Both the position numbers and the translations under genes were made by a program. A stretch of 64,000 bases of DNA, taken from sequence record OQ703618.1; one strand, written 5' to 3'. Shown here piece after piece: positions 1,676-47,363 of the stretch. Source of the stretch: Escherichia phage GADS24. The notes below the pieces were generated by a model. That model was given only the letters and a program-made list of their open reading frames with translations. It did no database searches and was not told the origin of the DNA. Positions within the stretch are counted from its first letter, which is position 1. Each line of letters opens with the position of its first letter.

Positions 1676-1990
1676 TTATTCTTTAGGGAAGTTTTTAGAG
1701 TATGCATCGTAAAGTTTATTACCAATACGGCGGAAGACTTTAGCTGCAAAACGGTTTTCAGGGTTTTTAATCATGATTTGCATCATGTAAGTTCCTGCAT
1801 CCGAAAGAGCTTCTTCATAGTACCCATTAATTTCTTTAAGAGTCCTACGTTTACCACCAGGACCATCAACAGTAATTTTCCATTTACCTGTAGAAGTGCG
1901 GCTCGGTGGCTCAACTTGTTCAATCCAAATATAACCACCTTCAACGCGTTGGTTGGCGGATTCTGCAATAAATTCTTTATACGTTTTCAT
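1676..1990 (-). CDS. internal protein (IP)-like, capsid-targeting N-terminus
   Basis: Begins MKTYKEFIAE; AAGGAAA SD; GTTTAC-18-TATAAT promoter upstream. Confidence 0.65.
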   Translation of the reverse strand: MKTYKEFIAESANQRVEGGYIWIEQVEPPSRTSTGKWKITVDGPGGKRRTLKEINGYYEEALSDAGTYMMQIMIKNPENRFAAKVFRRIGNKLYDAYSKNFPKE

Positions 1991-2018
1991 TTTTGTTTCC
2001 TTGTTTGTTTTGATAAAG

Positions 2019-2051
2019 TAATTATACTATATTAATACTTAAGCGTAAACA
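2019..2051 (-). promoter_or_regulatory. sigma70/T4 early-type promoter (GTTTAC -35, 18 nt, TATAAT -10)
   Basis: Minus strand reads GTTTAC (rc of 2045-2050), 18-nt spacer, TATAAT (rc of 2021-2026); upstream of IP-like gene 1676..1990. Confidence 0.5.
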
Positions 2052-2053
2052 AT

Positions 2054-2314
2054 TTAAGCTTTACCGCCAGAAATAATTCCGAAGTTGTTAAAATCGTATC
2101 CAATATCGTCAACATCTACTTTAGGGCTTGCTACAACATAAGCAATTTCACTACGTTTTGCATAGGTGTTGATTTCTTTACCATCGCCACCTAAGAAAAA
2201 ATACCCATTACGTTTTAATGAGCCAAAGTCTTCCGCATCACCAATGAAAGCTTTAACTTTAAATTTAGGACCTTTGGCATCTGCTTCAGCGATAAATTCT
2301 TGATACATTTTCAT
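2054..2314 (-). CDS. internal protein (IP)-like, capsid-targeting N-terminus
   Basis: Begins MKMYQEFIAE; SD AAGGA overlaps the denV stop. Confidence 0.65.
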   Translation of the reverse strand: MKMYQEFIAEADAKGPKFKVKAFIGDAEDFGSLKRNGYFFLGGDGKEINTYAKRSEIAYVVASPKVDVDDIGYDFNNFGIISGGKA

Positions 2315-3559: not shown

Positions 3560-3596
3560 AATACCTCCCACGTTTATAGGAGGTATTTATTACTTA
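3560..3596 (-). promoter_or_regulatory. RBS-sequestering stem-loop upstream of e with TATAAACG/TATAAGTA late-promoter-like motifs
   Basis: 8-bp inverted repeat ATACCTCC (3561-3568) / GGAGGTAT (3578-3585) includes the e Shine-Dalgarno; minus strand carries TATAAACG in the loop. Confidence 0.45.
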
Positions 3597-4278: not shown

Positions 4279-4766
4279 CTCAAATTCCTGCATTCGGTAA
4301 TAAAACGTTCAACTTCATTATTCTTGGCTTTTATCTTGTCTTTACGTTCCTGTAAACTACTTTTAATAAGACTAATAATGATGCCTATAGTACCTCCACC
4401 AATAATACCACCAACAACACTTATGATACTAGATGCTAATAAGATAGCGATAATATCAACAAAACCGAAAGAACTCACCTTAGTACTAAAAAACCATACC
4501 GACGGTACAAATATAATCCATCCTGTTATCCATTGGCACTTATTGAAAAACTTTTCAAGCTCAGCTTGAGTTGTTCGTATTACTTCATCGATAGGTTGAT
4601 ATCCATTAATGTATCTGTTCACGATAATACCTGCTGGCTGGTCGATTTTAAATTCTTGGCAAATACGTTTCACTAAGTAGGATGGACATCCTGTCCAATC
4701 TACTGAATAGTATGAAATACCTTCATTGCCATCGTCTATATTAGACCAATATGTTTTGTTAATCAT
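4275..4766 (-). CDS. hypothetical membrane protein with C-terminal FIxECR tail
   Basis: Hydrophobic, Gly-rich C-terminal half; ends ...ERFITECRNLR; start overlaps upstream stop (TAATG). Confidence 0.5.
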   Translation of the reverse strand: MINKTYWSNIDDGNEGISYYSVDWTGCPSYLVKRICQEFKIDQPAGIIVNRYINGYQPIDEVIRTTQAELEKFFNKCQWITGWIIFVPSVWFFSTKVSSFGFVDIIAILLASSIISVVGGIIGGGTIGIIISLIKSSLQERKDKIKAKNNEVERFITECRNLR

Positions 4767-5452
4767 TACCAGCCTTCCATAGGGAATTCCAGATAAACTT
4801 GAGCATTGACACGAATTTCATTGGTAATCTTTTTAACTCGGTCTGTATTACGAGATACACGTCCGAACCAACGCCACCCATTACTAATTGCACGAGAACC
4901 AGTGTGCCATGTTTGCCAATCAAACTGAAGAAGAGTACGATCTGGAGCTTCCCATTTCTCTAGTTCACCTTTTTCAATTTTTTCGAGGACTTCTTTGTGC
5001 CACTGACGATAGATAAGTTCGCCATCAGGAATCTGACTGAACTCTGCAGTTCCTGTTGCAAAATGAGTAGGACACACGTCAGCGTTAACAAGACCAAGAA
5101 TATGTTCAGAATGGTAACGAGGGTTATCATAATCAGGTTGTCCTGCAGTAATAAAGTGTTGACCAACCGGAATATCCGGTCGTGGTACATCATCATGGTG
5201 ATAACCTGGGATAGCAGGGTACCAACCAGGCATCAGCATGTGGACTCGTGAATCAAATACAACCTGGTCGGTGTTCCAATCATCTGGCAAGTTCATGATG
5301 AAGCTGCGAGTAATAGGACCACCATTATTATAAGCAAATTCTAAACTACAGTTGAAGAACATAGGCTCGTTTTTAATCTGGTCATTTTTAATCGCGTGAG
5401 CAAAACCACCTACTGCACGAGCTTGACTATTAAACACTTTAGAACTATTCAT
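4766..5452 (-). CDS. hypothetical protein, His/Asp-rich (possible metal-binding)
   Basis: 228-aa ORF containing GYHHDD...H...H; GAGG SD. Confidence 0.5.
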   Translation of the reverse strand: MNSSKVFNSQARAVGGFAHAIKNDQIKNEPMFFNCSLEFAYNNGGPITRSFIMNLPDDWNTDQVVFDSRVHMLMPGWYPAIPGYHHDDVPRPDIPVGQHFITAGQPDYDNPRYHSEHILGLVNADVCPTHFATGTAEFSQIPDGELIYRQWHKEVLEKIEKGELEKWEAPDRTLLQFDWQTWHTGSRAISNGWRWFGRVSRNTDRVKKITNEIRVNAQVYLEFPMEGW

Positions 5453-5453
5453 A

Positions 5454-5759
5454 TTATTTTCCTCGACATTCTTTAATGAAATTTTCTAGATTGGTAGATT
5501 CAATAGCTTTTTTACGAGCTTCTGCGTGTTCTTCTTCGGACAATTTACGTTTATAATTGACCCAGACATTATGGTCGAAACCAGACGTGGCATATAATAA
5601 CAAAGCTCCGACGAATAATAAAAACGGTGATAAGAATACAAAACCAGGAACACCATCCATATCGTAAGCCTTTTGTAATACTGCAACAGAAAGAGATGCG
5701 TAAAAAGGTGATGCAAGTATTGTTAAAAGACCGATTCGATTGGTTTCTGTTAATTTCAT
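5454..5759 (-). CDS. hypothetical membrane protein with C-terminal ENFIKECR tail
   Basis: Two predicted TM segments; ends ...LENFIKECRGK; CATGAGGAGAATATT-ATG RBS; promoter/stem-loop cassette upstream. Confidence 0.5.
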   Translation of the reverse strand: MKLTETNRIGLLTILASPFYASLSVAVLQKAYDMDGVPGFVFLSPFLLFVGALLLYATSGFDHNVWVNYKRKLSEEEHAEARKKAIESTNLENFIKECRGK

Positions 5760-5826
5760 AATATTCTCCTCATGTTTTAATAGGACTACTATAACATAGT
5801 CCTATAATTGTGTAAACAGTTTTGTG
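5760..5826 (-). promoter_or_regulatory. PeSL-like early promoter/stem-loop cassette
   Basis: Minus strand: GTTTAC (rc 5812-5817), 18 nt, TATAGT; 8-bp perfect inverted repeat TAGGACTA (5781-5788)/TAGTCCTA (5798-5805); conserved RBS CATGAGGAGAATATTATG. Confidence 0.55.
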
Positions 5827-5829
5827 AAG

Positions 5830-6786
5830 TTATTTGAAAGGTTTTACCATATGGAAATTTTGTTTGAAACGTTTGACGTAATCGTCATGTCCTAAGCTTT
5901 GGTACATACTTACTACTTTGCTGTAGTTTTCCCAGGCATACTCACGGAACCAGCCGGAGGTTATGCTTGTGCAGACTTTTTCTAATGCCATCATAAAACT
6001 GGCTTCAGGGTTAATTTTAAAGTCATTAGGAATCTGAGAACGTTCTAATGCTAGTACACATGATTCTTCATATACACCGGCCAATTTGACCATTTCTGGT
6101 AATGATTCGAACTTCTCGCGTGAGGTCATGACTTCAGAACCGTCTTTCATATAAAATGTATACGCTGGCCGGTCTGTTAGTGCAATGGCTTCATGAATAG
6201 TATCATGGTCATATGTATAGATGTCATCTTTAAAGAACGCACTTTTAGAAGTGTCAAGAACTGGGTGAGCATAGTTCAAGGTTTCTTTCTGGCGTTTCAG
6301 CATAATTTCAGTAAGTTCATCGTTCAGTGTAACACCTTTACCACGAAGATACTGAATATGGTTCATAGTCTTTAAAAAGAATGGATTATTTTTCTTGAAA
6401 CGATGAGACATCTTAATTGCAAGACATATCTCAGGAGTTGCCCAATAAAACCCGGTCAAACGATCTTTAGTCAAATTTTTCTTGGCGTATTTTAAAAGGT
6501 CATAAGAAGACGTGAAATCTTCAGGAGTGAGTTCACCTACTAATTCGCGGACATTAGTGATTGCCGGAACAATATATGCTTCAAAATGAGTTTCGCGTCC
6601 ATTATGGAAGCATTTGAAAACTTGGACATCAGGGTTATCTTGATGAACATATACACCCATCATTTGATTTTTGAATGCATTCCAAGAACCTTGGTCTGCA
6701 ATAAAGTCCCAGTCACTATTTTTGATAGCGTTAGAATCAATAAGACCATGATAGTGAAGTGCACGAGAACCAATAACTAACATCAT
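5830..6786 (-). CDS. hypothetical protein with nucleotidyltransferase-fold-like N-terminus
   Basis: 318 aa; N-terminus LVIGSRALHYHGLIDSNAIKNSDWDFIAD resembles the hG[GS]...[DE]h[DE]h pol-beta NTase signature; GAGGAAAATATT-ATG RBS. Confidence 0.5.
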   Translation of the reverse strand: MMLVIGSRALHYHGLIDSNAIKNSDWDFIADQGSWNAFKNQMMGVYVHQDNPDVQVFKCFHNGRETHFEAYIVPAITNVRELVGELTPEDFTSSYDLLKYAKKNLTKDRLTGFYWATPEICLAIKMSHRFKKNNPFFLKTMNHIQYLRGKGVTLNDELTEIMLKRQKETLNYAHPVLDTSKSAFFKDDIYTYDHDTIHEAIALTDRPAYTFYMKDGSEVMTSREKFESLPEMVKLAGVYEESCVLALERSQIPNDFKINPEASFMMALEKVCTSITSGWFREYAWENYSKVVSMYQSLGHDDYVKRFKQNFHMVKPFK

Positions 6787-6814
6787 AATATTTTCCTCGG
6801 ATTAATTCATTAAC

Positions 6815-7054
6815 TTAAATTTCACGACATGCGATATTATATTCATCCCAGAGGTCATCATGTGAAGCCTCTACCAATGGAACGATTGTACCATTTATGT
6901 CTTCATTATAAGGGCAAATTGTGCAGTGTGCATCTTCAAATCGGATGCCTTTGTGTTCAGATTTTTTATAACGCATATCGAATATCTTTGCAAACTTTTC
7001 ACGAGTAATGGTTTTACCAACCACTTTAGTTCCTATACTTTCATAATAAATCAT
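6815..7054 (-). CDS. hypothetical protein
   Basis: ORF track 6815..7066; start likely at MIYY ATG with GGAG SD. Confidence 0.4.
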   Translation of the reverse strand: MIYYESIGTKVVGKTITREKFAKIFDMRYKKSEHKGIRFEDAHCTICPYNEDINGTIVPLVEASHDDLWDEYNIACREI

Positions 7055-7066
7055 TGTGGACTCCAT

Positions 7067-7116
7067 TTAATTTGATAGGACTACTATAACATAGCCCTAT
7101 CTTGTTGTAAACTGTT
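7067..7116 (-). promoter_or_regulatory. PeSL-like early promoter/stem-loop cassette
   Basis: TGATAGGACTACTATAACATAG core shared with cassette at 5781; GTTTAC (rc 7107-7112); imperfect stem TAGGACTA/TAGCCCTA. Confidence 0.5.
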
Positions 7117-7314
7117 TTAGCAAGAATAACTAGACGATACCCAGCCTTGAACAGTGATACTATTGTTGGATAATGAGATCGCGTTCTGGAGATTCAGACC
7201 TGCGTTATCTTCAATCCATAATGTAACTTCTTCGCGTTCTTCTGTTGCAATTTGGAACAGGTTTTCCAGAGCAGCTACTGCCGTACGTACAGCACAATCT
7301 AATTCACGAGACAT
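7117..7314 (-). CDS. small protein, GW[VI][SA]SS..C paralogue family member
   Basis: Ends ...QGWVSSSYSC; similar to the next two ORFs. Confidence 0.45.
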   Translation of the reverse strand: MSRELDCAVRTAVAALENLFQIATEEREEVTLWIEDNAGLNLQNAISLSNNSITVQGWVSSSYSC

Positions 7315-7323
7315 ATGATTTCC

Positions 7324-7596
7324 TTAGCAAGTGTGAGAAGATGCAATCCAACCACCAGTTTCGAGGCTCAGGTTGTAGTCGTATTGGTAAACGTCGGCCC
7401 ATTCAGCATAGCCGTTTTTTGTACAACGTTCAAGATCGGCTTTAAGCTGTCCGGGTGAATGATAAGTTCCACCCATACCATAAGCTGGATACAAGTCGAA
7501 TGTTGTGTTTTGTTTATCAGCGATTTCTTTGGCAGCCTCAATAGCTGCATAGATTTTTGCTACAGCTTCAGCCAGTTCGGTTTGTTCTTTAGACAT
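7324..7596 (-). CDS. small protein, GW[VI][SA]SS..C paralogue family member
   Basis: Ends ...GGWIASSHTC; junction TGCTAAGGAAATCATATG. Confidence 0.5.
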   Translation of the reverse strand: MSKEQTELAEAVAKIYAAIEAAKEIADKQNTTFDLYPAYGMGGTYHSPGQLKADLERCTKNGYAEWADVYQYDYNLSLETGGWIASSHTC

Positions 7597-7605
7597 AATG
7601 ATTCC

Positions 7606-7911
7606 TTAGCACAAAGCAGAAGACGAAACCCAAGCACCTTCAGTAATAACGTAACCATTACCTTCACGCTTAACATCGCCACCATTATTTTCAATTTCAT
7701 TTTTCATCCACTGGGATACGATTTCACCCTTAGGATAATAAGTACGACCGCTACCATAATCACCTACAGAAAATGATACGGCATATTGGTCTGCGATCTT
7801 TGTTGCTTCTTCTTCGATACGTTCAGCTTGATTCAGAAGTTTATAAATTGCATCTGAAGCGGATTTGGCATCGTTAAACTCTGGTACTTTAATTTCAATA
7901 ATCTTACTCAT
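7606..7911 (-). CDS. small protein, GW[VI][SA]SS..C paralogue family member
   Basis: Ends ...GAWVSSSALC; start overlaps upstream stop (ATGA). Confidence 0.5.
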   Translation of the reverse strand: MSKIIEIKVPEFNDAKSASDAIYKLLNQAERIEEEATKIADQYAVSFSVGDYGSGRTYYPKGEIVSQWMKNEIENNGGDVKREGNGYVITEGAWVSSSALC

Positions 7912-8267
7912 TTTCTACATTCCTTAATAAAGTTTTCGATTGTTTCATTTTCACGTTTAGCTAAAAGTTCATTATAACTAACCATTTGAGAAGCGTAAAC
8001 CTTTTTATTTTTCTTGTTATGGTTTATAAAATCGTAGTAAAAATAGACTACAGTACAAAATGATGCGATGGATGCAAAGGCTTGGGTATACCGTAAGTCC
8101 TGCCATTGGTCTGTGAATCCACCAGTGTTCCCTATAAATCCTAACACAACGCCGTCAATAAGAAATCCAACTAATCCAAAGGCAAATCCCATGCCAATAC
8201 TCATAATAAAAATTAGAATGTTCTCACCAAGAGAAGGCCGTACGGTTAAGAGTTGAGGCTTTTGCAT
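7908..8267 (-). CDS. hypothetical membrane protein with C-terminal ENFIKECR tail
   Basis: Hydrophobic N-terminal half; ends ...IENFIKECRK. Confidence 0.5.
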   Translation of the reverse strand: MQKPQLLTVRPSLGENILIFIMSIGMGFAFGLVGFLIDGVVLGFIGNTGGFTDQWQDLRYTQAFASIASFCTVVYFYYDFINHNKKNKKVYASQMVSYNELLAKRENETIENFIKECRK

Positions 8268-8641
8268 CTTATTTCCTTAACGAATTCCATAGCTTCTTCG
8301 TATTCATACTTTTTAACAGCTTCATTATACTGAGCTTGGGCTTTTGCGCACTGAACTTTCCATTCTCTTAATCTGGCTCTGTGATGTCGTCCTTGGTACC
8401 AATATCCCACCCAGTTAATAGGCATTAATAAAAATGGTACAATAAACGACCCGGGTATAATAAGTAAAAACACTGCATCAGACGATATAACTCCACTAGA
8501 ATCTAAAACAGCTCCTATAATCATAAAGATTAAAAATGCTAAAGCTAAAATAGGGCCAAACAACACTTCATTAGGAATTAATTTACGTTTGTATTCGTAT
8601 GCCCAGGGCTTAATTGGCATGTACAGGGTTGGCTTTGACAT
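8246..8641 (-). CDS. hypothetical membrane protein
   Basis: ORF track 8246..8671; start moved to ATG 8639-8641 (MSKPTLY) with GGAATGTAGAGAAT SD region; hydrophobic core; ends ...EFVKEIRCKSLNS. Confidence 0.45.
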   Translation of the reverse strand: MSKPTLYMPIKPWAYEYKRKLIPNEVLFGPILALAFLIFMIIGAVLDSSGVISSDAVFLLIIPGSFIVPFLLMPINWVGYWYQGRHHRARLREWKVQCAKAQAQYNEAVKKYEYEEAMEFVKEIRCKSLNS

Positions 8642-9215
8642 ATTCTCTACATTCCATAATAAATTGCTCAAGGATTAAATTGTTAGTGAAATTAGGACTA
8701 ACAACCATGGTTTCATAAAGCGCATCAATAGCACTTAAAGCATCAACTCTCTTAAGCAAAGGCTTGCCTTCATACATAGTTTCAGAATCGACGATTAATG
8801 TAAAGTAATATTTTTTATTATCGACTAGAACTTCAGTATCGATATAAAACATGTTAGACCTTAAAAGCTTATCTCTAAAGCCTATGTAATCATCTGAACG
8901 TTCGCTGATATATTCCCATTCAGTGTTTAAACAACAAACAGACCATGTAGGAGCAACGAAATCAGTAAATCTAATATCATGGTCTGCAACTAGTTTAGCA
9001 ATAGCTCCGATATCATGAATCATAATACCTGGGGCTAATAAAGATTTTCGGTTATTTGCATATTCAGTTGTCTCATAAGAAGACGACCAGTACCATTTAC
9101 GTCCAGTTGCAACATATCGTAATGAATCAACTAAAGACGTAGGTGGATTTACCTTATTTCGGAACTCTTCGAACATTGAGTCAATATCATTATTTTGGTT
9201 TCGCATGTTAACTCC
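8610..9215 (-). CDS. hypothetical protein
   Basis: ORF track 8610..9227; start moved to ATG 9213-9215 with AAGGAG SD; C-terminal region contains EQFIMECR. Confidence 0.5.
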   Translation of the reverse strand, partial: GVNMRNQNNDIDSMFEEFRNKVNPPTSLVDSLRYVATGRKWYWSSSYETTEYANNRKSLLAPGIMIHDIGAIAKLVADHDIRFTDFVAPTWSVCCLNTEWEYISERSDDYIGFRDKLLRSNMFYIDTEVLVDNKKYYFTLIVDSETMYEGKPLLKRVDALSAIDALYETMVVSPNFTNNLILEQFIMECREYVKANPVHAN

Positions 9216-9228
9216 TTTATTATCCAAA

Positions 9229-9247
9229 AGGAGGACCGGAGTCCTCC
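9229..9247 (-). terminator. GC hairpin (GGAGGAC-CGGA-GTCCTCC), candidate terminator
   Basis: 7-bp stem with tetraloop between genes 9256..9849 and 8610..9215; short T-run follows on minus strand. Confidence 0.35.
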
Positions 9248-9255
9248 GTATTATT

Positions 9256-9849
9256 TTATTTCAAAGAGTTAATATATTCTTGTACATCAGCAGAAGTGGT
9301 TTCGACACCAGCTGGAGTGCCATTGAACGTTTCAACACGAGTCAGAGTGTCTTCGATATCAACCTTAGTCAGTGCAGCGATTTCAATTACATCATCAGCC
9401 GTAGAGATACCAAGGGCATTGGCTGCTCGAGTTTCACGAATGTATTCGAGTTTGATTGCCAGATTCTGACGAGCATCATCAAGTTCAACCACCTTACGAG
9501 CAATTTCAATTCGCATAGCAGCATACCCGTCAGCTTTTGTATTAAGTTGTTCGGCAGTTCGACGATACAGAAGACCAAGCTTAGCATGCATGGTAACATC
9601 TTGTCCTTCAGCCAGGAGCTTACGAATTTCACGTTCCTTAGAAGCGGCTTGTTTGTTCTTTTCATTAACAAGTTCGCGAATACGTTTTTCTTCATTAATA
9701 GATTTAACAGAAGCCGTTTTTAGTTCTTTGATCTGGGTAATCAACTTATCTGCAGCTGCGTTATACTGTTCTTCGACAGTCAGATTTTTAGCCATAGCAG
9801 TACCCAGTTTAGTGCGGATGAATTCAACAAGTTTCTTCAGTGTGTTCAT
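9256..9849 (-). CDS. hypothetical coiled-coil protein
   Basis: Start at MNTLKK ATG (9847-9849) with AAAGGT SD; composition strongly helical/charged. Confidence 0.5.
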
Positions 9850-9884
9850 ATTATTACCTTTCAATTGGTGGTTTATTATCCAAT

Positions 9885-9919
9885 GAGAGCATTATACTCT
9901 GCTCTCAAGAGTTTGTAAA
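9885..9919 (-). promoter_or_regulatory. sigma70-type promoter (TTTACA-17-TATAAT) with -10 inside a stem-loop
   Basis: Minus strand TTTACA (rc 9914-9919), 17 nt, TATAAT (rc 9891-9896); stem GAGAGC (9885-9890)/GCTCTC (9901-9906) encloses the -10. Confidence 0.5.
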
Positions 9920-10147
9920 TTATTTTTTAATCAAATTGACATAAAATTCTGCATCTTCAGGGTGCATGCCTTCGCAGTATTCTTCAACCATGAACTTCTT
10001 AACAGCTTCATAAGGACCACTCAGATTAAGCTCAGTTGTCCAGAACTTGGAATCTTGGACTGAATCGATACGAACTTCAGGGTGACGGTTGCGAATAACT
10101 TCTTCTGTGTATTCATAATCAACGACATCAATACTAACTGTAGCCAT
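9920..10147 (-). CDS. hypothetical protein (75 aa)
   Basis: ORF track; GAGGAAAAC SD; promoter cassette upstream. Confidence 0.45.
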   Translation of the reverse strand: MATVSIDVVDYEYTEEVIRNRHPEVRIDSVQDSKFWTTELNLSGPYEAVKKFMVEEYCEGMHPEDAEFYVNLIKK

Positions 10148-10210
10148 TTTGTTTTCCTCTTGATTTGATAGGACTACTATAACATAAACTTACTTAGATG
10201 TAAATTATTT
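10148..10210 (-). promoter_or_regulatory. PeSL-like cassette (degenerate stem)
   Basis: TGATAGGACTACTATAACATA core (10167-10187); ATTTAC -35-like (rc 10199-10204). Confidence 0.4.
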
Positions 10211-10358
10211 CAACGTCACCTTTAGCTGCTTTATAACCTTCAGCCCAAGATACAACAGAGTTTTTATCTGAGGATTCAAATTCAGGCATTGGACTTTCAC
10301 CAATATTCACACAGTATGTTTCTTCATTTTCATCGAACCAAATAATTAAAGTAGTCAT
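10194..10358 (-). CDS. hypothetical small protein (54 aa, below ORF-track cutoff)
   Basis: ATG 10356-10358 preceded by GAGGAG SD inside the 43-nt cassette shared with 47260..47302; translation MTTLIIWFDENEETYCVN... Confidence 0.35.
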   Translation of the reverse strand: MTTLIIWFDENEETYCVNIGESPMPEFESSDKNSVVSWAEGYKAAKGDVEIIYI

Positions 10359-10398
10359 TTTGTTTACTCCTCTGTAGTTGATAAGTCTATAGTATCAC
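10356..10398 (-). repeat. 43-nt cassette identical to 47260..47302 (-10/RBS/start-codon module)
   Basis: CATTTTGTTTACTCCTCTGTAGTTGATAAGTCTATAGTATCAC is identical at both loci; minus strand reads ...TGATACTATAGACTTATCAACTACAGAGGAGTAAACAAAATG. Confidence 0.8.
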
Positions 10399-10425
10399 CA
10401 TCCTTGGTGCTTGTACATCATTATT

Positions 10426-10731
10426 TTAATTTTTCCAACTTAACAACTTGTAGTATCCTTCATTCATACGTGGTTTATCCCAAGAAATACTAATATATGA
10501 TTCACTGTCAATAGAAGTCGCCGGGTTTTTCTCTACCGTAAGACCTTCACTTTCCAGCCATTCAATAGTATTTGCGCATAAATCTGAAGAACACCTAATC
10601 GGAAACCGGCAAGATTTTTCACCTTTAGCTGCAGTGTTATACATCTTTTCTAAAATACGCTTTTGCACGTTTTTAAAAATAGTTTCGGCAGATTCTTCAG
10701 ATTTTTTATTCAGTTCAGTGTAAAGACTCAT
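10426..10731 (-). CDS. hypothetical protein (101 aa)
   Basis: ORF track 10426..10773; start moved to ATG 10729-10731 with CATGAGGAGAATATT RBS identical to that of gene 5454..5759. Confidence 0.5.
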   Translation of the reverse strand: MSLYTELNKKSEESAETIFKNVQKRILEKMYNTAAKGEKSCRFPIRCSSDLCANTIEWLESEGLTVEKNPATSIDSESYISISWDKPRMNEGYYKLLSWKN

Positions 10732-10795
10732 AATATTCTCCTCATGTTTTTTAATAGGACTATAGTAACACATCTAGGGAAGAAGTAAACAACTT
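10732..10795 (-). promoter_or_regulatory. PeSL-like early promoter cassette
   Basis: GTTTAC (rc 10785-10790), 17 nt, TACTAT; TAGGACTATAGTAACA core. Confidence 0.45.
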
Positions 10796-10805
10796 TTTCA
10801 GTAAG

Positions 10806-10838
10806 TTATAAACCCCCTAAAGGGACCCGAAGGTCCCC
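10806..10838 (-). terminator. rho-independent terminator (GGGACC-TTCG-GGTCCC + TTTAGGGGGTTTAT)
   Basis: 6-bp GC stem 10822-10837 with tetraloop; T-rich tail on minus strand, directly after the stop of 10844..11470. Confidence 0.5.
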
Positions 10839-10843
10839 ATTCT

Positions 10844-11470
10844 TTACTTACGAGTTTTTGCATACTGAGCAGCATCAGCAGCCAAACGACCTGCCTGACG
10901 AAGTTTTTCTTTAATCGCATCGTGAAGTGGTTGAGTATACTTCAAACCTTCGATAGTCAAATAAAGACGATAAAGGTCTGGGGTATCAAGGTTGTTGATA
11001 TGTTGACCATTGCGAAGAATATTGAATTCACGAACGAGTGAAGATGTATCGGATTCAATATCACGAACAAGCGAAGATAGTTGTTTATATTTTTTTTCCA
11101 GGCTAGAAGTATCAAACTTAAGAGCAGGAGCTTTAGGAGTTGCTTTTACTTCAGGCTTAGGCTCAGGTTTTGCTATTGCTTTAGGGGTCGCAGGTTTAGG
11201 AACGGTAGGAGCAGGTTTTACTTTAGGCGAACCAGATTTAGCAGGAACACCACCACTAACAATATCTTTGAATGCTTTAGAAGCTCTGTAATATTCTTTT
11301 TGGCTCGAAGTGTCGATACCGTACATGGCTTGAACGTTTTTGAAAAACTCTGTACTAGTTTTTGTACCAGAAATAGCATCATAAGCAGCTCGCCATTTCT
11401 CTTTTGTCATACGTACACCGGCTTCGGTGATTACTTCCGTTTCGGCTAAAAATTCATTAAAAGTATACAT
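10844..11470 (-). CDS. internal protein (IP)-like with capsid-targeting N-terminus and Pro/Ala/Lys-rich linker
   Basis: Begins MYTFNEFLAE; central PKVKPAPTVPKPATPKAIAKPEPKPEVKATPKAPA; late promoter TATAAATA about 36 nt upstream. Confidence 0.6.
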   Translation of the reverse strand: MYTFNEFLAETEVITEAGVRMTKEKWRAAYDAISGTKTSTEFFKNVQAMYGIDTSSQKEYYRASKAFKDIVSGGVPAKSGSPKVKPAPTVPKPATPKAIAKPEPKPEVKATPKAPALKFDTSSLEKKYKQLSSLVRDIESDTSSLVREFNILRNGQHINNLDTPDLYRLYLTIEGLKYTQPLHDAIKEKLRQAGRLAADAAQYAKTRK

Positions 11471-11505
11471 CGATGGTCCTTAGAAAGTAGGTTTATTGTT
11501 TACTA

Positions 11506-11513
11506 TATTTATA
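11506..11513 (-). promoter_or_regulatory. T4 late promoter TATAAATA (minus strand)
   Basis: Plus tatttata at 11506-11513 = TATAAATA on minus, upstream of IP-like gene start 11470. Confidence 0.55.
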
Positions 11514-11544
11514 CAAAAAAAAGCCCCAACCTTTCGGAAGGGGC
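11514..11544 (-). terminator. candidate rho-independent terminator
   Basis: GC-rich imperfect hairpin 11523-11544 followed on minus strand by T8 (rc of A-run 11515-11522). Confidence 0.45.
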
Positions 11545-11574
11545 TATATACCTTGTCGGGGTTTCCACCTACTA

Positions 11575-11740
11575 GGTAAGTGTTTGTACGAAACGCCGGG
11601 ATTTGAACCCGGTTATTAAGTAGTTGACGCTACTCAATATTTTTAAAAGGCCATATCTCGACCATATCCGAACGTTCCGTCAAAAACGCTACTCGGCTTA
11701 CGGCAAAGATATTTCCTCGAATCGTTAATTAGGTGCGCCG
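11575..11740 (-). ncRNA. candidate small stable RNA with tRNA-like T-arm (rnaC/rnaD-like) or tRNA remnant
   Basis: Minus strand carries CCGGG-TTCAAAT-CCCGG (rc of 11596-11612); no canonical D/anticodon arms or 7-bp acceptor stem found by hand; lies 3' of the tRNA genes, where T4 has species 1/2 RNAs. Confidence 0.25.
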
Positions 11741-11847
11741 TTTCTGCTGTGATGTAAGGGGATATTAACAAATCGTAAAGATTTATTAAGACCAGTCCTT
11801 ACTCAGGGAACATCAGTCCGACGACTTGCCGGTAGCGACCCGGCTTC

Positions 11848-12192
11848 TTATTTTGGCATATCATCAATTTGCTCTCGACGCCGACGCCATAGATTAATCG
11901 CTTCATAAACACATTCAGCATTTGGTATATGGCGACAATAGTATAGTGATTCGCGTTTCTGGAATCGATGTTGTAATGGAATTTCGTTTAAAAGGTCTTT
12001 ACGGTCAAAGTATTCAAAACTAGTTAACCCGGAACGGTTTTTAAGAAACTTCCAATGGCCGAATTCATTTTGGAAATAAACGTAATCAGCGTGTTGATAT
12101 AACGAATTAATCAACCGGTCGGAAATAACTGTATCCTGTTCGTTAAAATAAAACGTTAAATCATGAACTACTAGATAAATATTGCCTTTCAT
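11848..12192 (-). CDS. hypothetical protein (114 aa)
   Basis: ORF track 11848..12240; start moved to ATG 12190-12192 (MKGNIYL) with GTGAGGAAAAT SD so it does not overlap tRNA-Arg. Confidence 0.45.
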   Translation of the reverse strand: MKGNIYLVVHDLTFYFNEQDTVISDRLINSLYQHADYVYFQNEFGHWKFLKNRSGLTSFEYFDRKDLLNEIPLQHRFQKRESLYYCRHIPNAECVYEAINLWRRRREQIDDMPK

Positions 12193-12210
12193 ATTTTCCT
12201 CACTTAAAGT

Positions 12211-12287
<77 letters not shown>

Positions 12288-12290
12288 GAT

Positions 12291-12365
12291 TGGTGACCCT
12301 GGCTGGTTTCGATCCAGCTACCTATCAGTTATGAGCTGACAGCTCTCCCATTGAGCTACAGGGCC
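12291..12365 (-). tRNA. tRNA with CAT anticodon (Met, or Ile if lysidine-modified)
   Basis: Hand-folded 75 nt: acceptor GGCCCTG/CAGGGTC, D-arm GCTC-AATGGGA-GAGC, anticodon stem GTCAG/CTGAT with loop CT-CAT-AA, T-arm GCTGG-ATCGAAA-CCAGC, encoded ACCA. Confidence 0.8.
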
Positions 12366-12444
12366 TAAATAACTTTCTATTATGAAAGGCACTTTAGAGT
12401 ACCTTTGGTAATAGAGGGTATGAATTAATAATAACACATAATTC

Positions 12445-12960
12445 TTAAAGCAAATCAATCATTTTAACAGTTGGTAAAACAATTTCCTTTTCAATATAAG
12501 CAAATTCGACACGTTCAACTACACGCAAGAAATCGTAATCATAATATTCAGAAGCGTGGCCGAGAATATCAATAAGGCCTTTGGATACCTCATCACCTTT
12601 CACAAAGAACAGGTCGAATACACGCGATTCGTCTTCTTCAGATTTATTACCAAGGTCGACTTCAATATCAAAGACCTTTTTAATGAATTCTGGATAAAGC
12701 TGGTCTGAGAACAGTCCTTCAACCAAGTATTCATAGATTAAAAGTGAGCAATCACTGAACGGTGTATTACCACAGTAACGTTCAGCTTTAGTGCTAGAAT
12801 GACGACTCTTAAATTTCTTCAAGAGATATTTAAACTGTTGGAGCTCATGCTCTTCTACACCAAATAATGTTTTGGTTTTATAGTTGTCACCGTCATTTTC
12901 CCAAGTAGTGACATCAATTACGTAACCTTTAGGAATTGTACTGCCTAAACAAATATTCAT
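12445..12960 (-). CDS. hypothetical protein (171 aa)
   Basis: ORF track; tightly packed with the two genes upstream. Confidence 0.5.
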   Translation of the reverse strand: MNICLGSTIPKGYVIDVTTWENDGDNYKTKTLFGVEEHELQQFKYLLKKFKSRHSSTKAERYCGNTPFSDCSLLIYEYLVEGLFSDQLYPEFIKKVFDIEVDLGNKSEEDESRVFDLFFVKGDEVSKGLIDILGHASEYYDYDFLRVVERVEFAYIEKEIVLPTVKMIDLL

Positions 12961-12964
12961 TTAT

Positions 12965-13255
12965 TCACCGTACCATATTAATGTAATTATATTCAATGCA
13001 ACGTAATTTCAAAGGATTCTTGAAAATATCATATTCAAGAGGACCTGATTCAGTTTCAATAAAGAAATCAAAGTTCACACTATTAAATTTGCGGTCTTCC
13101 CAAAGTAATTTAACCTGTGAAGATGAACGGTCGACGTAAACCTTTTCAACTTCAAAATTAGTCAAAATACCATAGTAATCGACTAGTGCTTTAGCTGCAC
13201 GTTGATCGCTTTCATATCCATTCTCGACAGATTTTACTTTAGCATAAAGAATCAT
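12965..13255 (-). CDS. hypothetical protein (96 aa)
   Basis: ORF track; overlaps upstream gene by 4 nt. Confidence 0.5.
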   Translation of the reverse strand: MILYAKVKSVENGYESDQRAAKALVDYYGILTNFEVEKVYVDRSSSQVKLLWEDRKFNSVNFDFFIETESGPLEYDIFKNPLKLRCIEYNYINMVR

Positions 13256-13614
13256 GAGTGTTCCACCACTTCAAAAGTATGTGCATTGACAATCTGATAC
13301 CAGTCAAAATTTTCTTCAGCATTTTTGTAGATTTCACGAAGAGCTTCAACAGTTTTTCCTGTAGCAACAAGATCGTCAATACCGCCAAGAGGATAACAGT
13401 CGTAACCAGCAAACAGAAGGAAATTAATAGTTTCTGTAGGTTCTGGATGCAGAACACCGTTATCGTCTACCACTTCAAAGAAAATGTAAGAAGGAGTACA
13501 AGTTTTAATCCAGGCCCAAGCTTGAGCTGCTGAATCAAATGGTCTGCGTATCAAACGACAATCCGGGTCTTTAGAAGGATTTGCTTCAAAATCCGCATAT
13601 ACGTGATATTTCAT
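13252..13614 (-). CDS. hypothetical protein (about 120 aa)
   Basis: ORF track 13252..13632; probable start at MKYHVY ATG. Confidence 0.45.
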   Translation of the reverse strand: MKYHVYADFEANPSKDPDCRLIRRPFDSAAQAWAWIKTCTPSYIFFEVVDDNGVLHPEPTETINFLLFAGYDCYPLGGIDDLVATGKTVEALREIYKNAEENFDWYQIVNAHTFEVVEHS

Positions 13615-13615
13615 T

Positions 13616-13822
13616 TTACTCACCTTTTGCAATTTTATCCATAACGATAGCGATTAAGCCGATTAGAAATGCTACTACCAATGAGATAGAATTTTCTGTT
13701 GTTGTCAGTAGTCCACAAATGAATCCTACAAACATCGAAAAACTAAAAGCCATTGAAGCAATTACTACAGCAACATTACGAATCAGTTCAGCGCGTTTCA
13801 TTTTATTTCTCCATTTACTCAT
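13616..13822 (-). CDS. small membrane protein (68 aa)
   Basis: Single long hydrophobic segment; promoter cassette directly upstream. Confidence 0.4.
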   Translation of the reverse strand: MSKWRNKMKRAELIRNVAVVIASMAFSFSMFVGFICGLLTTTENSISLVVAFLIGLIAIVMDKIAKGE

Positions 13823-13871
13823 TTGTTTTGATAGGACTACTATAACATAATCCTATCAGCATGTAAACTAC
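13823..13871 (-). promoter_or_regulatory. PeSL-like early promoter/stem-loop cassette
   Basis: GTTTAC (rc 13863-13868), 17 nt, TTATAG; TGATAGGACTACTATAACATAATCCTATC inverted repeat. Confidence 0.5.
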
Positions 13872-14159
13872 TTACAGAAGAGTTTTTGCAATAATTTTAA
13901 GCTGAGCTACAGAAATATGCTTAGCTTTAAACAGTGCAGTCTCTTCAGCCGGAGAGATAACAATAGTAGCGCCATCTTTCTTAGCAGACCATCCATCCCC
14001 TAAGTAAACAGTACCTTTTACTTCTTCGCCGTCAACCAGACTAATCATTGGTTTACCCTCACGTCCTTTATTTGCTTTAATAACTTCGGAAGTAAGGGTT
14101 GCTTCGGTCAGAGTAGAAACGTTAGCATCAGGTGATATAAATTCTTTATAGGTTTTCAT
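13872..14159 (-). CDS. internal protein I-like (IP with capsid-targeting N-terminus)
   Basis: Begins MKTYKEFIS; 95 aa like T4 IPI precursor; adjacent to 57B as ipI is in T4. Confidence 0.6.
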   Translation of the reverse strand: MKTYKEFISPDANVSTLTEATLTSEVIKANKGREGKPMISLVDGEEVKGTVYLGDGWSAKKDGATIVISPAEETALFKAKHISVAQLKIIAKTLL

Positions 14160-14236
14160 TTTATTTCCTTGAGGTCGTTTATTTGATAGGATGATAGTAA
14201 CACGCCATCATCCTTATGTAAACTGTTTTTGTGAAA
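14160..14236 (-). promoter_or_regulatory. PeSL-like early promoter/stem-loop cassette
   Basis: GTTTAC (rc 14218-14223), 17 nt spacer; inverted repeat GGATGATAG (14189-14197)/CCATCATCC (14204-14212). Confidence 0.45.
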
Positions 14237-14922
<686 letters not shown>

Positions 14923-14926
14923 TTTA

Positions 14927-15661
14927 TTACCTTAAGATTGTTTCAATTTTAGAATAAAGCTCTTCTAAAGAGCCGTCGTTTGTAATAACTAAATCGCCTT
15001 CTTCAATAGGCAACCCAGCTTCTGTAATATGTTTATCGGTGGATTCCGTACCAGAGCGAACCACATGAATAACTGTAGCACCCATCGCTCTAGCGGTTTC
15101 CATTTCATGGACTTGGCGTGTATCGGTTACAACATAGTAATCGAAATCACTTCCAATATAATCCATATAGTTTAATGCAAAAAGTTTAACCCAATACATA
15201 CGGTCAAATAAATTAACGACAACATCCGTACCGAGGGCTTGCATAAGACGGCGGATTGACCATGTGTCGTTGATATTATTTATAGCTTCACGCAGGGCTT
15301 CATATGGTTTAATATCTAGATATGAATACCCACCTTCTAATGATGATAATACTTTAACATTATTAATTGGTAAATATTGACTTTGTAAATAAATTAGCGC
15401 TTCTTCCATTAATTCAATAACATCCAACTTATTGATATTTAATGGTGTTTCACGGTCGTATCCAACACCTTCGAAGTATTCATATTTCAACTCAGTGAAT
15501 ACATCAGGGTTTTCGGCATGTCTACGCCCCCAGGCTATTGCTAGAGCGTCTTTAATAGGATATGCCAATTGGTATTTTACGGATTTAAAGTTTGAATTGA
15601 TGTAATCAGCAGTGGTGTCTTTACCACTACGTTTGATGCCGCTTAAAAAGATTAGCTCCAT
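14927..15661 (-). CDS. 1: deoxynucleoside monophosphate kinase
   Basis: MELIFLSGIKRSGKDTTADYI...DRMYWVKLFAL...HEMETARAMGATVIHVVR matches T4 gp1. Confidence 0.9.
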   Translation of the reverse strand: MELIFLSGIKRSGKDTTADYINSNFKSVKYQLAYPIKDALAIAWGRRHAENPDVFTELKYEYFEGVGYDRETPLNINKLDVIELMEEALIYLQSQYLPINNVKVLSSLEGGYSYLDIKPYEALREAINNINDTWSIRRLMQALGTDVVVNLFDRMYWVKLFALNYMDYIGSDFDYYVVTDTRQVHEMETARAMGATVIHVVRSGTESTDKHITEAGLPIEEGDLVITNDGSLEELYSKIETILR

Positions 15662-15714
15662 AGGTTTTCCTCATATAATTTATGAGTGATTATAACATAC
15701 GGAGCTAGAAGCGA

Positions 15715-16299: not shown

Positions 16300-16393
16300 A
16301 AGCACCTCAAAAACGCTTTAATAAAAATGCAGTATAATGGTTTTAGGTCTCTTCCATTAATCTGGTTCAACAGAAGAACAGAAGAGAATAGAA

Positions 16394-46992: not shown

Positions 46993-47262
46993 TTATTTCT
47001 GTGCAATTTCAATGTAAGTTTTCAAAATATTTTGCCAATTAGGCATACCTTCTTGGACATATGCCGGAGAACCATCTTTGTTTTTGAATGACGCAAGTTT
47101 ATCAGTGGCCCAATAACCTTTAGCTCGAGCTTCGGAATCAACTTTCATCCATACTTTGTTGAAGGCATTACCATTAACTTTTGCACCATATTTTTCTACT
47201 AACTTAACTGCTTCAGCTTCCAGAACTTTTAAAGTATCTCGTAAGAAACGTGCTTTAGTCAT
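46993..47262 (-). CDS. hypothetical protein (89 aa) at the position occupied by segD in T4
   Basis: Minus-strand ORF between 23 and 24; not GIY-YIG; preceded by the 43-nt cassette shared with 10356..10398. Confidence 0.5.
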   Translation of the reverse strand: MTKARFLRDTLKVLEAEAVKLVEKYGAKVNGNAFNKVWMKVDSEARAKGYWATDKLASFKNKDGSPAYVQEGMPNWQNILKTYIEIAQK

Positions 47263-47322
47263 TTTGTTTACTCCTCTGTAGTTGATAAGTCTATAGTATC
47301 ACATACCAAATACGTTGTAAAC
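47260..47322 (-). promoter_or_regulatory. PeSL-like promoter cassette; 47260..47302 identical to 10356..10398
   Basis: GTTTAC (rc 47317-47322), 18 nt, TACTAT, then the identical -10/RBS/ATG module. Confidence 0.55.
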
Positions 47323-47328
47323 AATCTT

Positions 47329-47336
47329 TATAAATA
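47329..47336 (+). promoter_or_regulatory. T4 late promoter TATAAATA (gene 24)
   Basis: Exact TATAAATA 28 nt upstream of gene 24 ATG. Confidence 0.6.
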
Positions 47337-47363
47337 ATCTATATCACATAAGGAAAAAATGCA

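Follow-up and report, generated by a model that had tools for sequence, protein, structure and literature searches.

Composite elements joining a promoter, a stem-loop, a Shine-Dalgarno (SD) sequence and an ATG (PeSL elements) were described in phages RB49 and phi1, where ORFans lie between two elements, sites lacking the ORF have a single chimeric element, and crossovers map between the -10, the SD and the ATG (Arbiol et al., 2010; PMC2839356). [quoted passage not shown] The T-even elements were considered by the same authors as analogues of the RB49 ones, not homologues, and the version found at internal-protein (IP) loci had been pointed out in 1994 (Repoila et al., 1994, cited after Arbiol et al., 2010) and again in 2010. 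In T4/PST the PeSL consensus is TTTACW-N17-TAYWAT, and the elements, including "degraded" halves, carry A/T-rich variable stems with SD and start codon at the 3' end, cluster in hyperplastic regions and adjoin indels between close relatives (Comeau, Arbiol and Krisch, 2014; PMC4122927). The Mosigvirus/RB69 lineage was not part of that analysis.

The DNA analysed here (the window, 64,000 nucleotides of Escherichia phage GADS24, OQ703618.1) belongs to a Mosigvirus-like (RB69-like) T4-type coliphage of the same subfamily as T4/PST, and its small-gene region is the e-tRNA-ipI hyperplastic region. An initial annotation had proposed at least six promoter/stem-loop cassettes in this region. All six are real and lie on the minus strand, with -35 elements starting at 5817, 7112, 10205, 10790, 13868 and 14223, and four more (9920, 10418, 2050 and 47322) had been overlooked. 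Nine of the ten cassettes are located at 2-14.3 kb of the window, the exception being cassette J. They are listed below with the ORFs they are predicted to drive.

Cassette A, 5757..5842, minus strand: -35 GTTTAC 5817-5812; -10 TATAGT 5793-5788; hairpin arms 5805-5796 and 5789-5780 (-12.8 kcal/mol, z -2.9); SD GAGGAG; ATG 5759; 101-aa ORF 5454-5759.
Cassette B, 7052..7137, minus strand: -35 7112-7107; -10 7088-7083; hairpin 7101-7074 with a G.U pair (-16.0 kcal/mol, z -5.8); SD GGAG; true ATG 7054; ORF ending at 6815.
Cassette C (not listed earlier), 9847..9945, minus strand: -35 ATTTAC 9920-9915; -10 TATAAT 9896-9891; promoter scoring 11/12 to the sigma-70 consensus; hairpin TGAGAGCA/TGCTCTCA at 9907-9900 and 9891-9884 (-13.8 kcal/mol, z -4.2); ATG 9849; e.6 homologue.
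Cassette D (half cassette), 10145..10225, minus strand: -35 ATTTAC 10205-10200; -10 TATAGT 10181-10176; 3' arm TAGTCCTAT present, 5' arm lost, hairpin absent on folding (z -0.3); ATG 10147; frd.3 homologue 9920-10147.
Cassette E (not listed earlier), 10356..10441, minus strand: -35 ATGTAC 10418-10413; -10 TACTAT 10394-10389; no hairpin; SD GAGGAG; ATG 10358; 54-aa ORF 10194-10358.
Cassette F (half cassette), 10729..10812, minus strand: -35 10790-10785; 17-nt spacer; -10 TACTAT 10767-10762; no hairpin; ATG 10731; preceded by a G+C-rich hairpin at 10837-10822.
Cassette G, 13799..13890, minus strand: -35 13868-13863; -10 13844-13839; hairpin 13857-13830 with a U.G pair (-15.7 kcal/mol, z -4.6); SD GGAG; true ATG 13801; tRNA.4 homologue.
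Cassette H, 14157..14245, minus strand: -35 14223-14218; -10 TACTAT 14199-14194; hairpin GGATGATGG/CTATCATCC at 14214-14205 and 14197-14188 (-14.3 kcal/mol, z -4.0); ATG 14159; ipI (MKTYKEFI... leader).
Cassette I (outside the range noted earlier), 1988..2075, minus strand: -35 2050-2045; -10 TATAAT 2026-2021; no hairpin; ATG 1990; another IP-type ORF (MKTYKEFI...).
Cassette J (outside the range noted earlier), 47260..47345, minus strand: -35 47322-47317; -10 47298-47293; no hairpin; ATG 47262; 89-aa ORF without known function, antisense between genes 23 and 24.

A composite pattern, in which the -35 and the -10 are 17-18 nt apart and YTATYAA follows, is found nine times in the window, always on the minus strand, against 0.01 expected from 200 Markov simulations, and the 17-mer ATAGGACTACTATAACA with up to three mismatches gives five matches against 0.30 expected (five or more in 0/100 shuffles). 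The similarity of the copies reaches well outside the hexamers, with alignments of 46-66 nt at 68-81% identity. The layout fits the definition of PeSL elements (Arbiol et al., 2010; Comeau et al., 2014), with every feature that can be read from the sequence being present. The elements are thus very probably T-even-type PeSL cassettes at which relatives gain, lose or swap small genes, and they constitute a new instance of an already described mechanism, not a new kind of element. As in T4/PST, the stems are A/T-rich and variable, SD and start codon lie at the 3' end and half elements occur; TACTAT and TATAAT fit the published -10 consensus exactly and TATAGT at 5/6 positions. The -35 GTTTAC, which departs from the TTGACA of RB49, had been assigned to all six listed sites and is present at five, 10205 having ATTTAC.

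The inverted repeat that had been placed within the spacer has only its 5' arm there; the first four bases of the -10 are in the loop and the 3' arm extends from -8 to about +2. This position agrees with the commonest one in RB49/phi1, and the stem likewise spans the spacer and the -10 in the T4 e-ipI promoters, whereas a PST figure legend places the stem-loops just upstream of the promoter (PMC4122927). Nor is a single repeat shared by all sites, as had been suggested: the ATAGGACTA/TAGTCCTAT palindrome is complete at three of the listed sites only. Stable hairpins are formed at 5817, 7112 and 13868 with the ATAGGACTAT stem and at 14223 with a different one, and the stem of the unlisted 9920 site differs again while occupying the same place as the other cassette stems. 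Overall, 5/8 cassettes in the range noted earlier fold at -12.8 to -16 kcal/mol (z -2.9 to -5.8). At 10205 and 10790 the 3' arm alone remains, and D lost its 5' arm because the stop codon of the upstream ORF sits in the spacer. No hairpin was found at D, E and F (3/8 in range, "half PeSLs"), nor at I and J, therefore the stem-loop is not obligatory. Across the window and 11 relatives there are 73 unique cores, and their energies are distributed bimodally, 37 at -10.5 kcal/mol or below and 36 at -8.2 kcal/mol or above.

The stems covary: at least six distinct sequences are found, and four of these share a register in which paired cells amount to 93%, compared with 32-58% for slid partners, and 5/11 pairs change on both sides. 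Cells changed on both sides number 19 against 4.7 in shuffles (19 reached in 0/500). One-sided changes are almost all G.U, the sense-strand excess of G.U over A.C changes not being significant when counted as events (7 vs 3, P = 0.17). The T4 promoters of ipI, ipII, ipIII, denV, e.7 and frd.2 show the same design with other stems. This diversity makes it extremely unlikely that the palindromes are operators of a dimeric sequence-specific DNA-binding protein, for instance an early-promoter shut-off factor: such a protein would need a conserved half-site, whereas the stems are unrelated in sequence, change in a compensatory or G.U-type one-sided manner, occupy two or three registers and are missing from half of the promoters. 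Inverted repeats that are perfect over 9-10 bp and have the -10 at their centre do resemble operator geometry, and a 2010 review still called the mechanism of T4 early-transcription shut-off unknown.

PeSL hairpins were originally defined as rho-independent terminators insulating each cassette, and the RB49 stem-loop PeSL211/210 lowered lacZ read-through to the same extent as rrnB T1 did (Arbiol et al., 2010; PMC2839356). The hairpins of the window are located 20-30 nt past the upstream stop codon, which speaks for such a function; however, their A/T-rich stems contain 3-4 G-C pairs, and the sequence after them is CAAA or TAAA instead of a U-run. Since they lack U-tracts they are not canonical terminators. 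A terminator scan flagged none of the cassette hairpins, and TransTerm, which found terminators inside many RB43 promoters, gave none at the RB69 orthologues; together with the missing U-tracts, these results leave the "terminator" half of the definition unsupported here. Canonical terminators stand separately nearby (e.g., 9247-9230), as does the G+C-rich hairpin before cassette F, and termination by the cassette stems is considered rather unlikely. A transcript from the cassette's own promoter would begin inside the 3' arm, so the full hairpin could form only in upstream read-through RNA or in single-stranded or cruciform DNA. Our best guess is that it may act as a barrier, attenuator or 3'-end stabiliser of upstream transcripts rather than as a canonical intrinsic terminator.

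Promoter activity is suggested by the consensus match and by published predictions for RB69 and T4. The orthologues of A, B, C and D are the RB69 early promoters Pe:67959, 69254, 72069 and 72354, and those of E, G and H are Pe:72567, 76459 and 77187 (Nolan et al., 2006; PMC1524935). They were treated there as promoters only; the promoter passages of that article do not mention recombination, and a search of its text did not find the term stem-loop. Downstream of the promoters, the conserved ribosome-binding site attributed to all sites is restricted to block CATGAGGAGAATATTATG, common to 5817 and 10790 only, and the leader plus SD of A and F are identical over 23 nt. E and J share 47 identical nt, from -14 to the second codon. 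For 7112 and 13868 the true start is in each case the second ATG (7054 and 13801, respectively), hence the GGAG at these sites is the SD sequence.

Gene content was compared with 11 relatives and differs exactly at the cassettes, where small genes are gained, lost or swapped, in agreement with the view of the flanked ORFs as exchanged cargo. Twenty-two indel or replacement breakpoint sites were scored in 13 kb, blind to direction as insertion and deletion are not separable and with the same event in several relatives possibly reflecting a single ancestral one; 9/22 fall in strictly defined cassettes, which make up 5.2% of the 13 kb (P = 7e-7), and 10/22 when the start codon of G is corrected. 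Breakpoints outside cassettes (12/22) lie within the tRNA segment, at the terminator of rnaC or inside ORFs; several tRNA-segment indels are not cassette-associated, and one insert at a non-cassette breakpoint is a homing-endonuclease-like gene.

At cassette A an indel breakpoint (5811-5817) corresponds to an extra 66-aa ORF in 8/11 relatives. In the insert-bearing relatives, A lines up first with the left part of one cassette and then with the right part of the cassette that follows. Cassette B shows no indel among the 11 relatives sampled. JN02 carries a 291-bp insert with an extra ORF at cassette C (breakpoint 9911-9925), and D has a breakpoint at 10184. 308Ecol101PP, G53 and SHSML-52-1 lack the 54-aa ORF between E and D, and their crossover points differ. 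In five relatives the 208-aa ORF that lies upstream of F, with its stop about 50 nt before the -35 of F, is swapped; the breakpoints are at 10796 (JK45, AV110, SHSML-52-1, JM10) and 10745 (RB69). At G a 75-nt alignment overlap (13796-13870) flanks an 87-aa ORF inserted in four relatives, with the full cassette duplicated on both sides of it; SHSML-52-1 has a different IP gene here and ipI is swapped in JM10. At H, RB69 has an extra IP gene bordered by a 55-nt overlap (14137-14191). These overlaps of 55-75 nt indicate that duplicated cassettes flank the inserts.

It could be argued that these are ordinary conserved early promoters, alike through selection on the consensus, and that indels map to them only since a viable whole-gene indel has to end between genes. 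T4 early promoters are known for extended consensus regions, 58 early promoters were predicted across the RB69 genome, and the -35, TGn, -10 and +1 (CTATCAA) are the best-conserved columns of the cassette alignment. This explanation is nevertheless given little probability: identity reaches non-promoter positions (palindromic spacers, the 23-nt and 47-nt leader blocks, first codons), cassettes are duplicated around inserts, the phiD1 module described below ends within cassettes, and enrichment holds even against an intergenic-junction null, 7/9 gene-scale events lying at the 8/28 gene junctions that bear a cassette (P = 0.003).

As PeSL elements, each cassette would be a strong T4-class early promoter for the host sigma-70 RNA polymerase, in which an A/T-rich UP-like flank precedes GTTTAC and a spacer of 17-18 nt separates this hexamer from the -10 (TGn-TATAGT or TACTAT); the promoter is joined to a short leader bearing the SD sequence. 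About half of the copies also have a 9-13 bp hairpin, formed by a 5' arm within the spacer and a 3' arm over the -10/+1. The small ORF behind each cassette would get its own early expression signal, and crossovers within cassettes could delete, insert or replace whole ORF-plus-promoter modules leaving neighbouring genes undamaged. As dispersed repeats of 45-75 nt that share one orientation, the cassettes probably serve the phage recombination system as homology patches. That exchange depends on a dedicated enzyme targeting the hairpin or cruciform (a homing endonuclease, endonuclease VII or another site- or structure-specific enzyme), and not on general homologous recombination, was raised as a possibility earlier (Arbiol et al., 2010; PMC2839356); in line with it, -12T and -11A are in the loop in all five stem types examined and two events (A, C) have an alignment overlap of just 7-15 nt, at the -35. 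Such an enzyme is very unlikely here, as the hairpin-less D, E and F are breakpoints as often as hairpin-bearing cassettes, crossover points spread from the UP region to the first codons, homology of less than 50 bp suffices for T4-type recombination, no recombinase gene accompanies the cassettes and the sole nuclease-like insert sits at a non-cassette site.

Like integron gene cassettes and lambdoid "morons", the modules are accessory genes that come singly, each with its own promoter, and are inserted as units at recurrent sites; unlike them, they lack both an integrase and an attC site, the repeats on either side are the expression signals themselves and exchange appears to be based on general homology. 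As in the T-even IP-locus elements, H and I precede internal-protein genes sharing the MKTYKEFI leader, and the extra or swapped IP genes of RB69, JM10 and SHSML-52-1 have breakpoints in promoter, leader and first codons. In contrast to those elements, the cassettes also flank non-IP ORFs across the e-tRNA segment and the ORF between genes 23 and 24, therefore the family is not confined to IP loci. Of the nine cassettes at 2-14.3 kb of the window, none adjoins a conserved late gene, and the cargo ORFs gave no match to any family of known function.

One module recurs at another locus in another genus: a 352-bp cassette-ORF-cassette unit at ~68 kb in Mosigvirus is found at ~52 kb in the Tequatrovirus phiD1, 91% identical, with unrelated neighbouring genes and homology that stops inside the cassettes. 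A homologue of the 87-aa ORF lies between gene 52 and motA in the Dhakavirus IME08, flanked by three repeated cassettes. The frd.3 homologue behind cassette D is 59% identical to T4 frd.3, which in T4 occupies a different locus, adjoining gene 32.

The early-promoter cassettes of phage GADS24 are T-even-type PeSL (promoter-early stem-loop) cassettes in an RB69-like phage and represent a new, well-documented set within a published class. The stretch 5000-15000 was matched by 919 phage records in megablast, the best matches being the Mosigvirus (RB69-like) coliphages TU01, JN02, HX01 and JS09 (95-98% identity); at least 129 Mosigvirus records span the region. The gene order of this minus-strand early region, taken from annotated relatives and RB69, is e/nudE - e.2..e.8 - frd.3 - rnaC/rnaD - tRNA-Arg/Met - tRNA.2-4 - ipI - 57B - 57A - gene 1. 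The segment from e through the tRNAs to ipI is one of the classical T-even hyperplastic regions and holds one of the two internal protein (IP) loci. The cassettes are given below by the first position of the -35, together with the hairpins predicted by folding.

A: 5817, minus strand, strong hairpin (stem common to A, B and G)
B: 7112, minus strand, strong hairpin (same stem)
C: 9920, minus strand, strong hairpin (third stem); not listed in the initial annotation
D: 10205, minus strand, no hairpin
E: 10418, minus strand, no hairpin; not listed in the initial annotation
F: 10790, minus strand, no hairpin
G: 13868, minus strand, strong hairpin (same stem as A and B)
H: 14223, minus strand, strong hairpin (different stem)
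I: 2050, upstream of another IP-type ORF, no hairpin
J: 47322, minus strand, no hairpin; the ORF that it drives (89 aa, function unknown) is antisense and sits in the interval from gene 23 to gene 24

The six minus-strand sites of the initial annotation (A, B, D, F, G and H) are all present and their copies align past the hexamers, a repeat finder grouping them into families of 52-66 nt with 68-81% identity. The members of that set are real; the whole family has more members and is less uniform than was first described. With up to 3 mismatches allowed, 5 copies of a 17-mer core were counted where chance predicts 0.3. The pattern [AG]T[TG]TAC-N17-18-TAYWDT-N3-6-YTATYAA has 9 occurrences, every one on the minus strand; simulations gave 0.01. 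In a generic sigma-70 scan the cassettes were among the highest-ranking matches, scoring 10-11 of 12 and mostly having the TG of an extended -10, and the overall count of promoter-like matches in the region was not above chance. Cassette J and its ORF (46993-47345, minus strand) lie between major capsid gene 23 (45372-46940, plus strand) and vertex gene 24 (47364-48647, plus strand), and J shares with E, 37 kb apart, a stretch of 47 identical nt that begins at the -10 and reaches the second codon.

PeSL elements are defined by a strong early promoter preceded by A/T-rich DNA, a stem-loop, and the SD and start codon (ATG) with which the following gene begins; the stem-loop may occupy five positions, mostly in the spacer or across the -10 (Arbiol, 2010; PMC2839356). 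They cluster in hyperplastic regions, adjoin ORFans and mark indels between close relatives (PMC2839356; PMC4122927). An extension to T4 and PST gave the consensus TTTACW-N17-TAYWAT with variable A/T-rich stems (Comeau, 2014; PMC4122927). The GADS24 cassettes carry predicted sigma-70-type promoters of the expected kind (TTTACA-N17-TATAGT, TATAAT or TACTAT), with consensus scores of 9-11 of 12 in six of the eight cassettes A-H and TG before the -10 in five (E and F unlisted). A+T makes up 68-88% of the 25 nt upstream in nine of the ten cassettes and 60% in D (window, 62%), and the motif TTCACAAAAC recurs in these flanks. An SD and a start codon occur at the 3' end of all ten, with 28-41 nt from -10 to ATG when corrected starts are used for B and G. 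Nine of the ten are found within 2-14.3 kb of the 64-kb window, in keeping with a hyperplastic location, and none of the cargo ORFs belongs to a Pfam family, the PHROGs that they matched being of unknown function. The stem-loop is present in A, B, C, G and H, with energies of -12.8 to -16 kcal/mol and z of -2.9 to -5.8; D, E, F, I and J have their counterpart in the "degraded" class of published PeSLs. Every feature of the definition that sequence can test was found, supporting the PeSL-like interpretation, and the sequence proxies for termination were negative.

Details of the proposed layout needed revision. The inverted repeat does not lie within the spacer: only its 5' arm (ATAGGACTAT) does, bases 1-4 of the -10 form part of the loop, and the 3' arm occupies -8 to about +2. 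The conserved RBS is a real block, CATGAGGAGAATATT, at 5817 and 10790, and is restricted to those two sites. The SD contains GGAG in A, B, E, F, G and J (6 of 10) and GGAA or GGTA in C, D, H and I. GGAG is the motif cleaved in early mRNAs by the T4 endoribonuclease RegB.

"PeSL-like" elements were seen at T-even IP loci by Repoila et al. (1994), according to the Discussion of Arbiol (2010; PMC2839356), where they are described as being built on early promoters of T4, with A/T-rich stems that are weaker, and as analogues and not homologues of the RB49 elements. The present cassettes resemble those elements, which stand before IP genes with a common N-terminal leader in a polymorphic locus: H and I precede ORFs starting MKTYKEFI, and IP genes have been gained or swapped in RB69, JM10 and SHSML-52-1. 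For RB69 the comparison drew on its published promoter list, in which the orthologues are predicted as early promoters (Nolan et al., 2006; PMC1524935). No publication tying PeSLs to RB69 or Mosigvirus was found in the literature searched. Since PeSL modular shuffling was published in 2010-2014, and for IP loci in 1994, the gain is incremental.

The proposal that gene content differs at the cassettes was borne out when 3500-16500 was aligned with ten Mosigvirus-like phages, RB69 and T4 and the junction sequences were inspected: insertions, losses and swaps were detected at A, C, E/D, F, G and H.

Differences between the window and its relatives in the minus-strand early region (window coordinates).
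5811-5817 (-35 of A): extra 262 bp in 8 of 11 relatives, a 66-aa ORF with its own cassette
9911-9925 (-35 of C): extra 291 bp in JN02, a 93-aa ORF
E-D interval: 54-aa ORF absent in three phages
Upstream edge of E: abutting difference of 29 bp versus 218 bp
10796 (6 nt upstream of the -35 of F; 10745 in RB69) to 11518: 208-aa ORF exchanged for other ORFs in five phages
G: inserted ORF of 87 aa in four phages, with a 75-nt alignment overlap around it
G, further events: other IP gene in SHSML-52-1; ipI swapped in JM10
H: additional IP gene in RB69, with a 55-nt alignment overlap around it (SD and first codons of the shared IP leader)
11853-12210 and 12486-13011: deletions in JM10, not at cassettes
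tRNA-Arg/tRNA-Met pair (12203-12290): insertions in two phages, AV110 and HY126, not at cassettes

The inserts are flanked by duplicated cassettes; published PeSL indels are described as leaving behind single or chimeric elements. Strictly defined cassettes occupy 5.2% of the region and contain 9 of the 22 breakpoint sites (P = 7e-7; 10 of 22 with the corrected start of G). Under a stricter gene-junction null, seven of the nine gene-scale events fall at the 8 cassette junctions among 28 (P = 0.003). Crossovers are spread over the entire cassette. At E/D, the deletion retained an E-type leader in 308Ecol101PP and a D-type leader in G53 and SHSML-52-1, implying at least two crossover points. A promoter cassette was sought at the distal end of the 10796-11518 swap and none was found; that end is the rnaC terminator.

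At A, the window, RB69, JM10 and AV110 have a single cassette; in the longer arrangement its left part is matched collinearly by the first cassette and its right part by the second. A simple recombinant of the two at the -35 is too simple an account, as the six bases of the spacer that follow the -35 are not the same (acaatt vs aaactg); given this mismatch, a double crossover or replacement that used the UP/-35 segment and the palindrome/-10 segment is an equally good fit. Identity to TU01 is 94.7% to the left of cassette A (5811-5817) and 98.3% to the right, a step that suggests a mosaic boundary produced by homologous recombination at the cassette. The insertions in the tRNA pair lie apart from the cassettes: AV110 carries at 8752-9285 a 177-aa T5orf172/MUG113 (GIY-YIG-like) endonuclease ORF, and HY126 at 9175-10050 an 874-bp insert bearing an extra tRNA-Asn.

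The modules also occur elsewhere. Copies of the 66-aa ORF with 95-97% identity are found in other phages, among them Tequatrovirus phiD1, where the ORF lies at ~52 kb, with a nucleotidyltransferase gene on one side and g098 on the other. The DNA in common is a 352-bp cassette-ORF-cassette unit with 91% identity (background identity of phiD1 to the window in the region, ~81%) and unrelated flanks; it extends from the UP/-35 of the first cassette to ~+2 of the second, which has the same ATAGGACTA/TAGTCCTAT hairpin. This module and the JN02 module at C both terminate in ...AAATAAGTGTACAAACT. The 87-aa ORF inserted at G is present in only 29 records, Mosigvirus-like; Dhakavirus IME08 carries a homologue of it (63%) in the interval from gene 52 to motA. 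That IME08 interval (1590-2260) contains three tandem cassettes with near-identical cores of ~60 nt, the ORF between the second and third having no RefSeq annotation. Cassette D is followed by an ORF with 59% identity to frd.3 of T4, a gene that in T4 adjoins gene 32 behind a hairpin-bearing early promoter. One module is thus common to different genera at different loci. A scan of IMG/VR for TTATAGTAGTCCTAT returned 63 stretches, nearly all lone scattered matches on unrelated-looking contigs and taken as chance, with several matches on only one 121-kb contig, an apparent relative, so that the sample was not enlarged.

These comparisons offer a clean sequence-level illustration of accessory genes in RB69-like therapeutic coliphages being swapped as promoter-bounded modules, with exchange both within and between the genera Mosigvirus, Tequatrovirus and Dhakavirus. 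The cassettes flag where gene content should vary between otherwise near-identical phages, and are natural landing sites for engineered insertions.

Seventy-three distinct cassette cores from the window and 11 relatives gave bimodal folding energies, 37 at or below -10.5 and 36 at or above -8.2 kcal/mol. At least six unrelated stem sequences occupy one position: ATAGGACTAT, TGAGAGCA, GGATGATGG, GGTCTGTAG, GATAGGGTAGTG (from SHSML-52-1) and GATGAGGTAGTG (from T4 ipI). The T4 promoters of ipII, ipIII, denV, e.7 and frd.2 have the same layout with still other stems. With four stems placed in one register, 93% of cells are paired, versus 32-58% with a slid partner. Both sides have changed in 5 of 11 stem pairs, the cells changed on both sides outnumber those of all 500 shuffles, and one-sided changes are almost all G.U. 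This covariation argues for selection of the hairpin as a sense-strand structure and against a sequence-specific operator. The sense RNA is stabler than the antisense in 34 of the 37 hairpin cores, which are non-independent; counted as events, G.U-preserving versus A.C-creating changes stand at ~7 to 3 (P = 0.17), a strand asymmetry that is suggestive only. The five stem types examined, from the window and relatives, all have -12T and -11A as loop bases and -7T as a stem base.

Experiments on RB49/phi1 reported promoter activity, terminator activity and mini-circles (Arbiol, 2010; PMC2839356), the mini-circles from recombining neighbour elements being demonstrated only for RB49/phi1 (PMC2839356). 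As Rho-independent terminators the GADS24 hairpins fail, their 3' arms being followed by CAAA, TAAA or TTGG and not by a U-run; a terminator scan flagged none of these A/T-rich stems. The TransTerm list for RB69 has no site at the orthologous positions, with many sites within RB43 promoters (Nolan et al., 2006; PMC1524935). The predicted hairpin is compensated over many stem sequences yet not terminator-like. A transcript from the cassette's own promoter would start inside the 3' arm, so the full hairpin would be expected only where RNA reads through from upstream, or in DNA that is single-stranded or cruciform. A further, rather improbable reading takes the hairpin, not as a terminator, but as a structure of conserved geometry that acts in the non-template strand or in read-through RNA. 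On that reading, cruciform or hairpin extrusion that tunes promoter opening or early-promoter shut-off is conceivable, as is cleavage by a nuclease that recognises structure, for example endonuclease VII; if a nuclease cuts the hairpins, the cassettes bearing them would be active recombination hot spots and not passive homology patches. A hairpin that spans the -10, is compensated and has no U-tract is in any case a well-defined, testable feature.

Other elements of the region were also noted. The stretch 11518-11853 (minus strand), between the 208-aa ORF and a 114-aa ORF, is non-coding with a strong terminator at its end and is 88.8% identical to the T4 rnaC/rnaD segment (species 1 and 2 RNA), in agreement with the T2L annotation. 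It matched no Rfam family, and an Rfam scan of 4000-16000 with E up to 1 gave only two tRNAs besides weak chance hits. Three tandem small ORFs on the minus strand (7606-7911, 7324-7596 and 7117-7314), each with a C-terminal GW(V/I)(S/A)SSxxC followed by a stop and with ~71% DNA identity among their 3' ends, look like tandem paralogues of unknown function. A near-consensus early promoter with no hairpin (GTTTAC-N18-TATAAT; 8000-7971, minus strand) is located within the ORF 7908-8267; it is kept in all relatives and corresponds to the low-scoring RB69 promoter Pe:70143.
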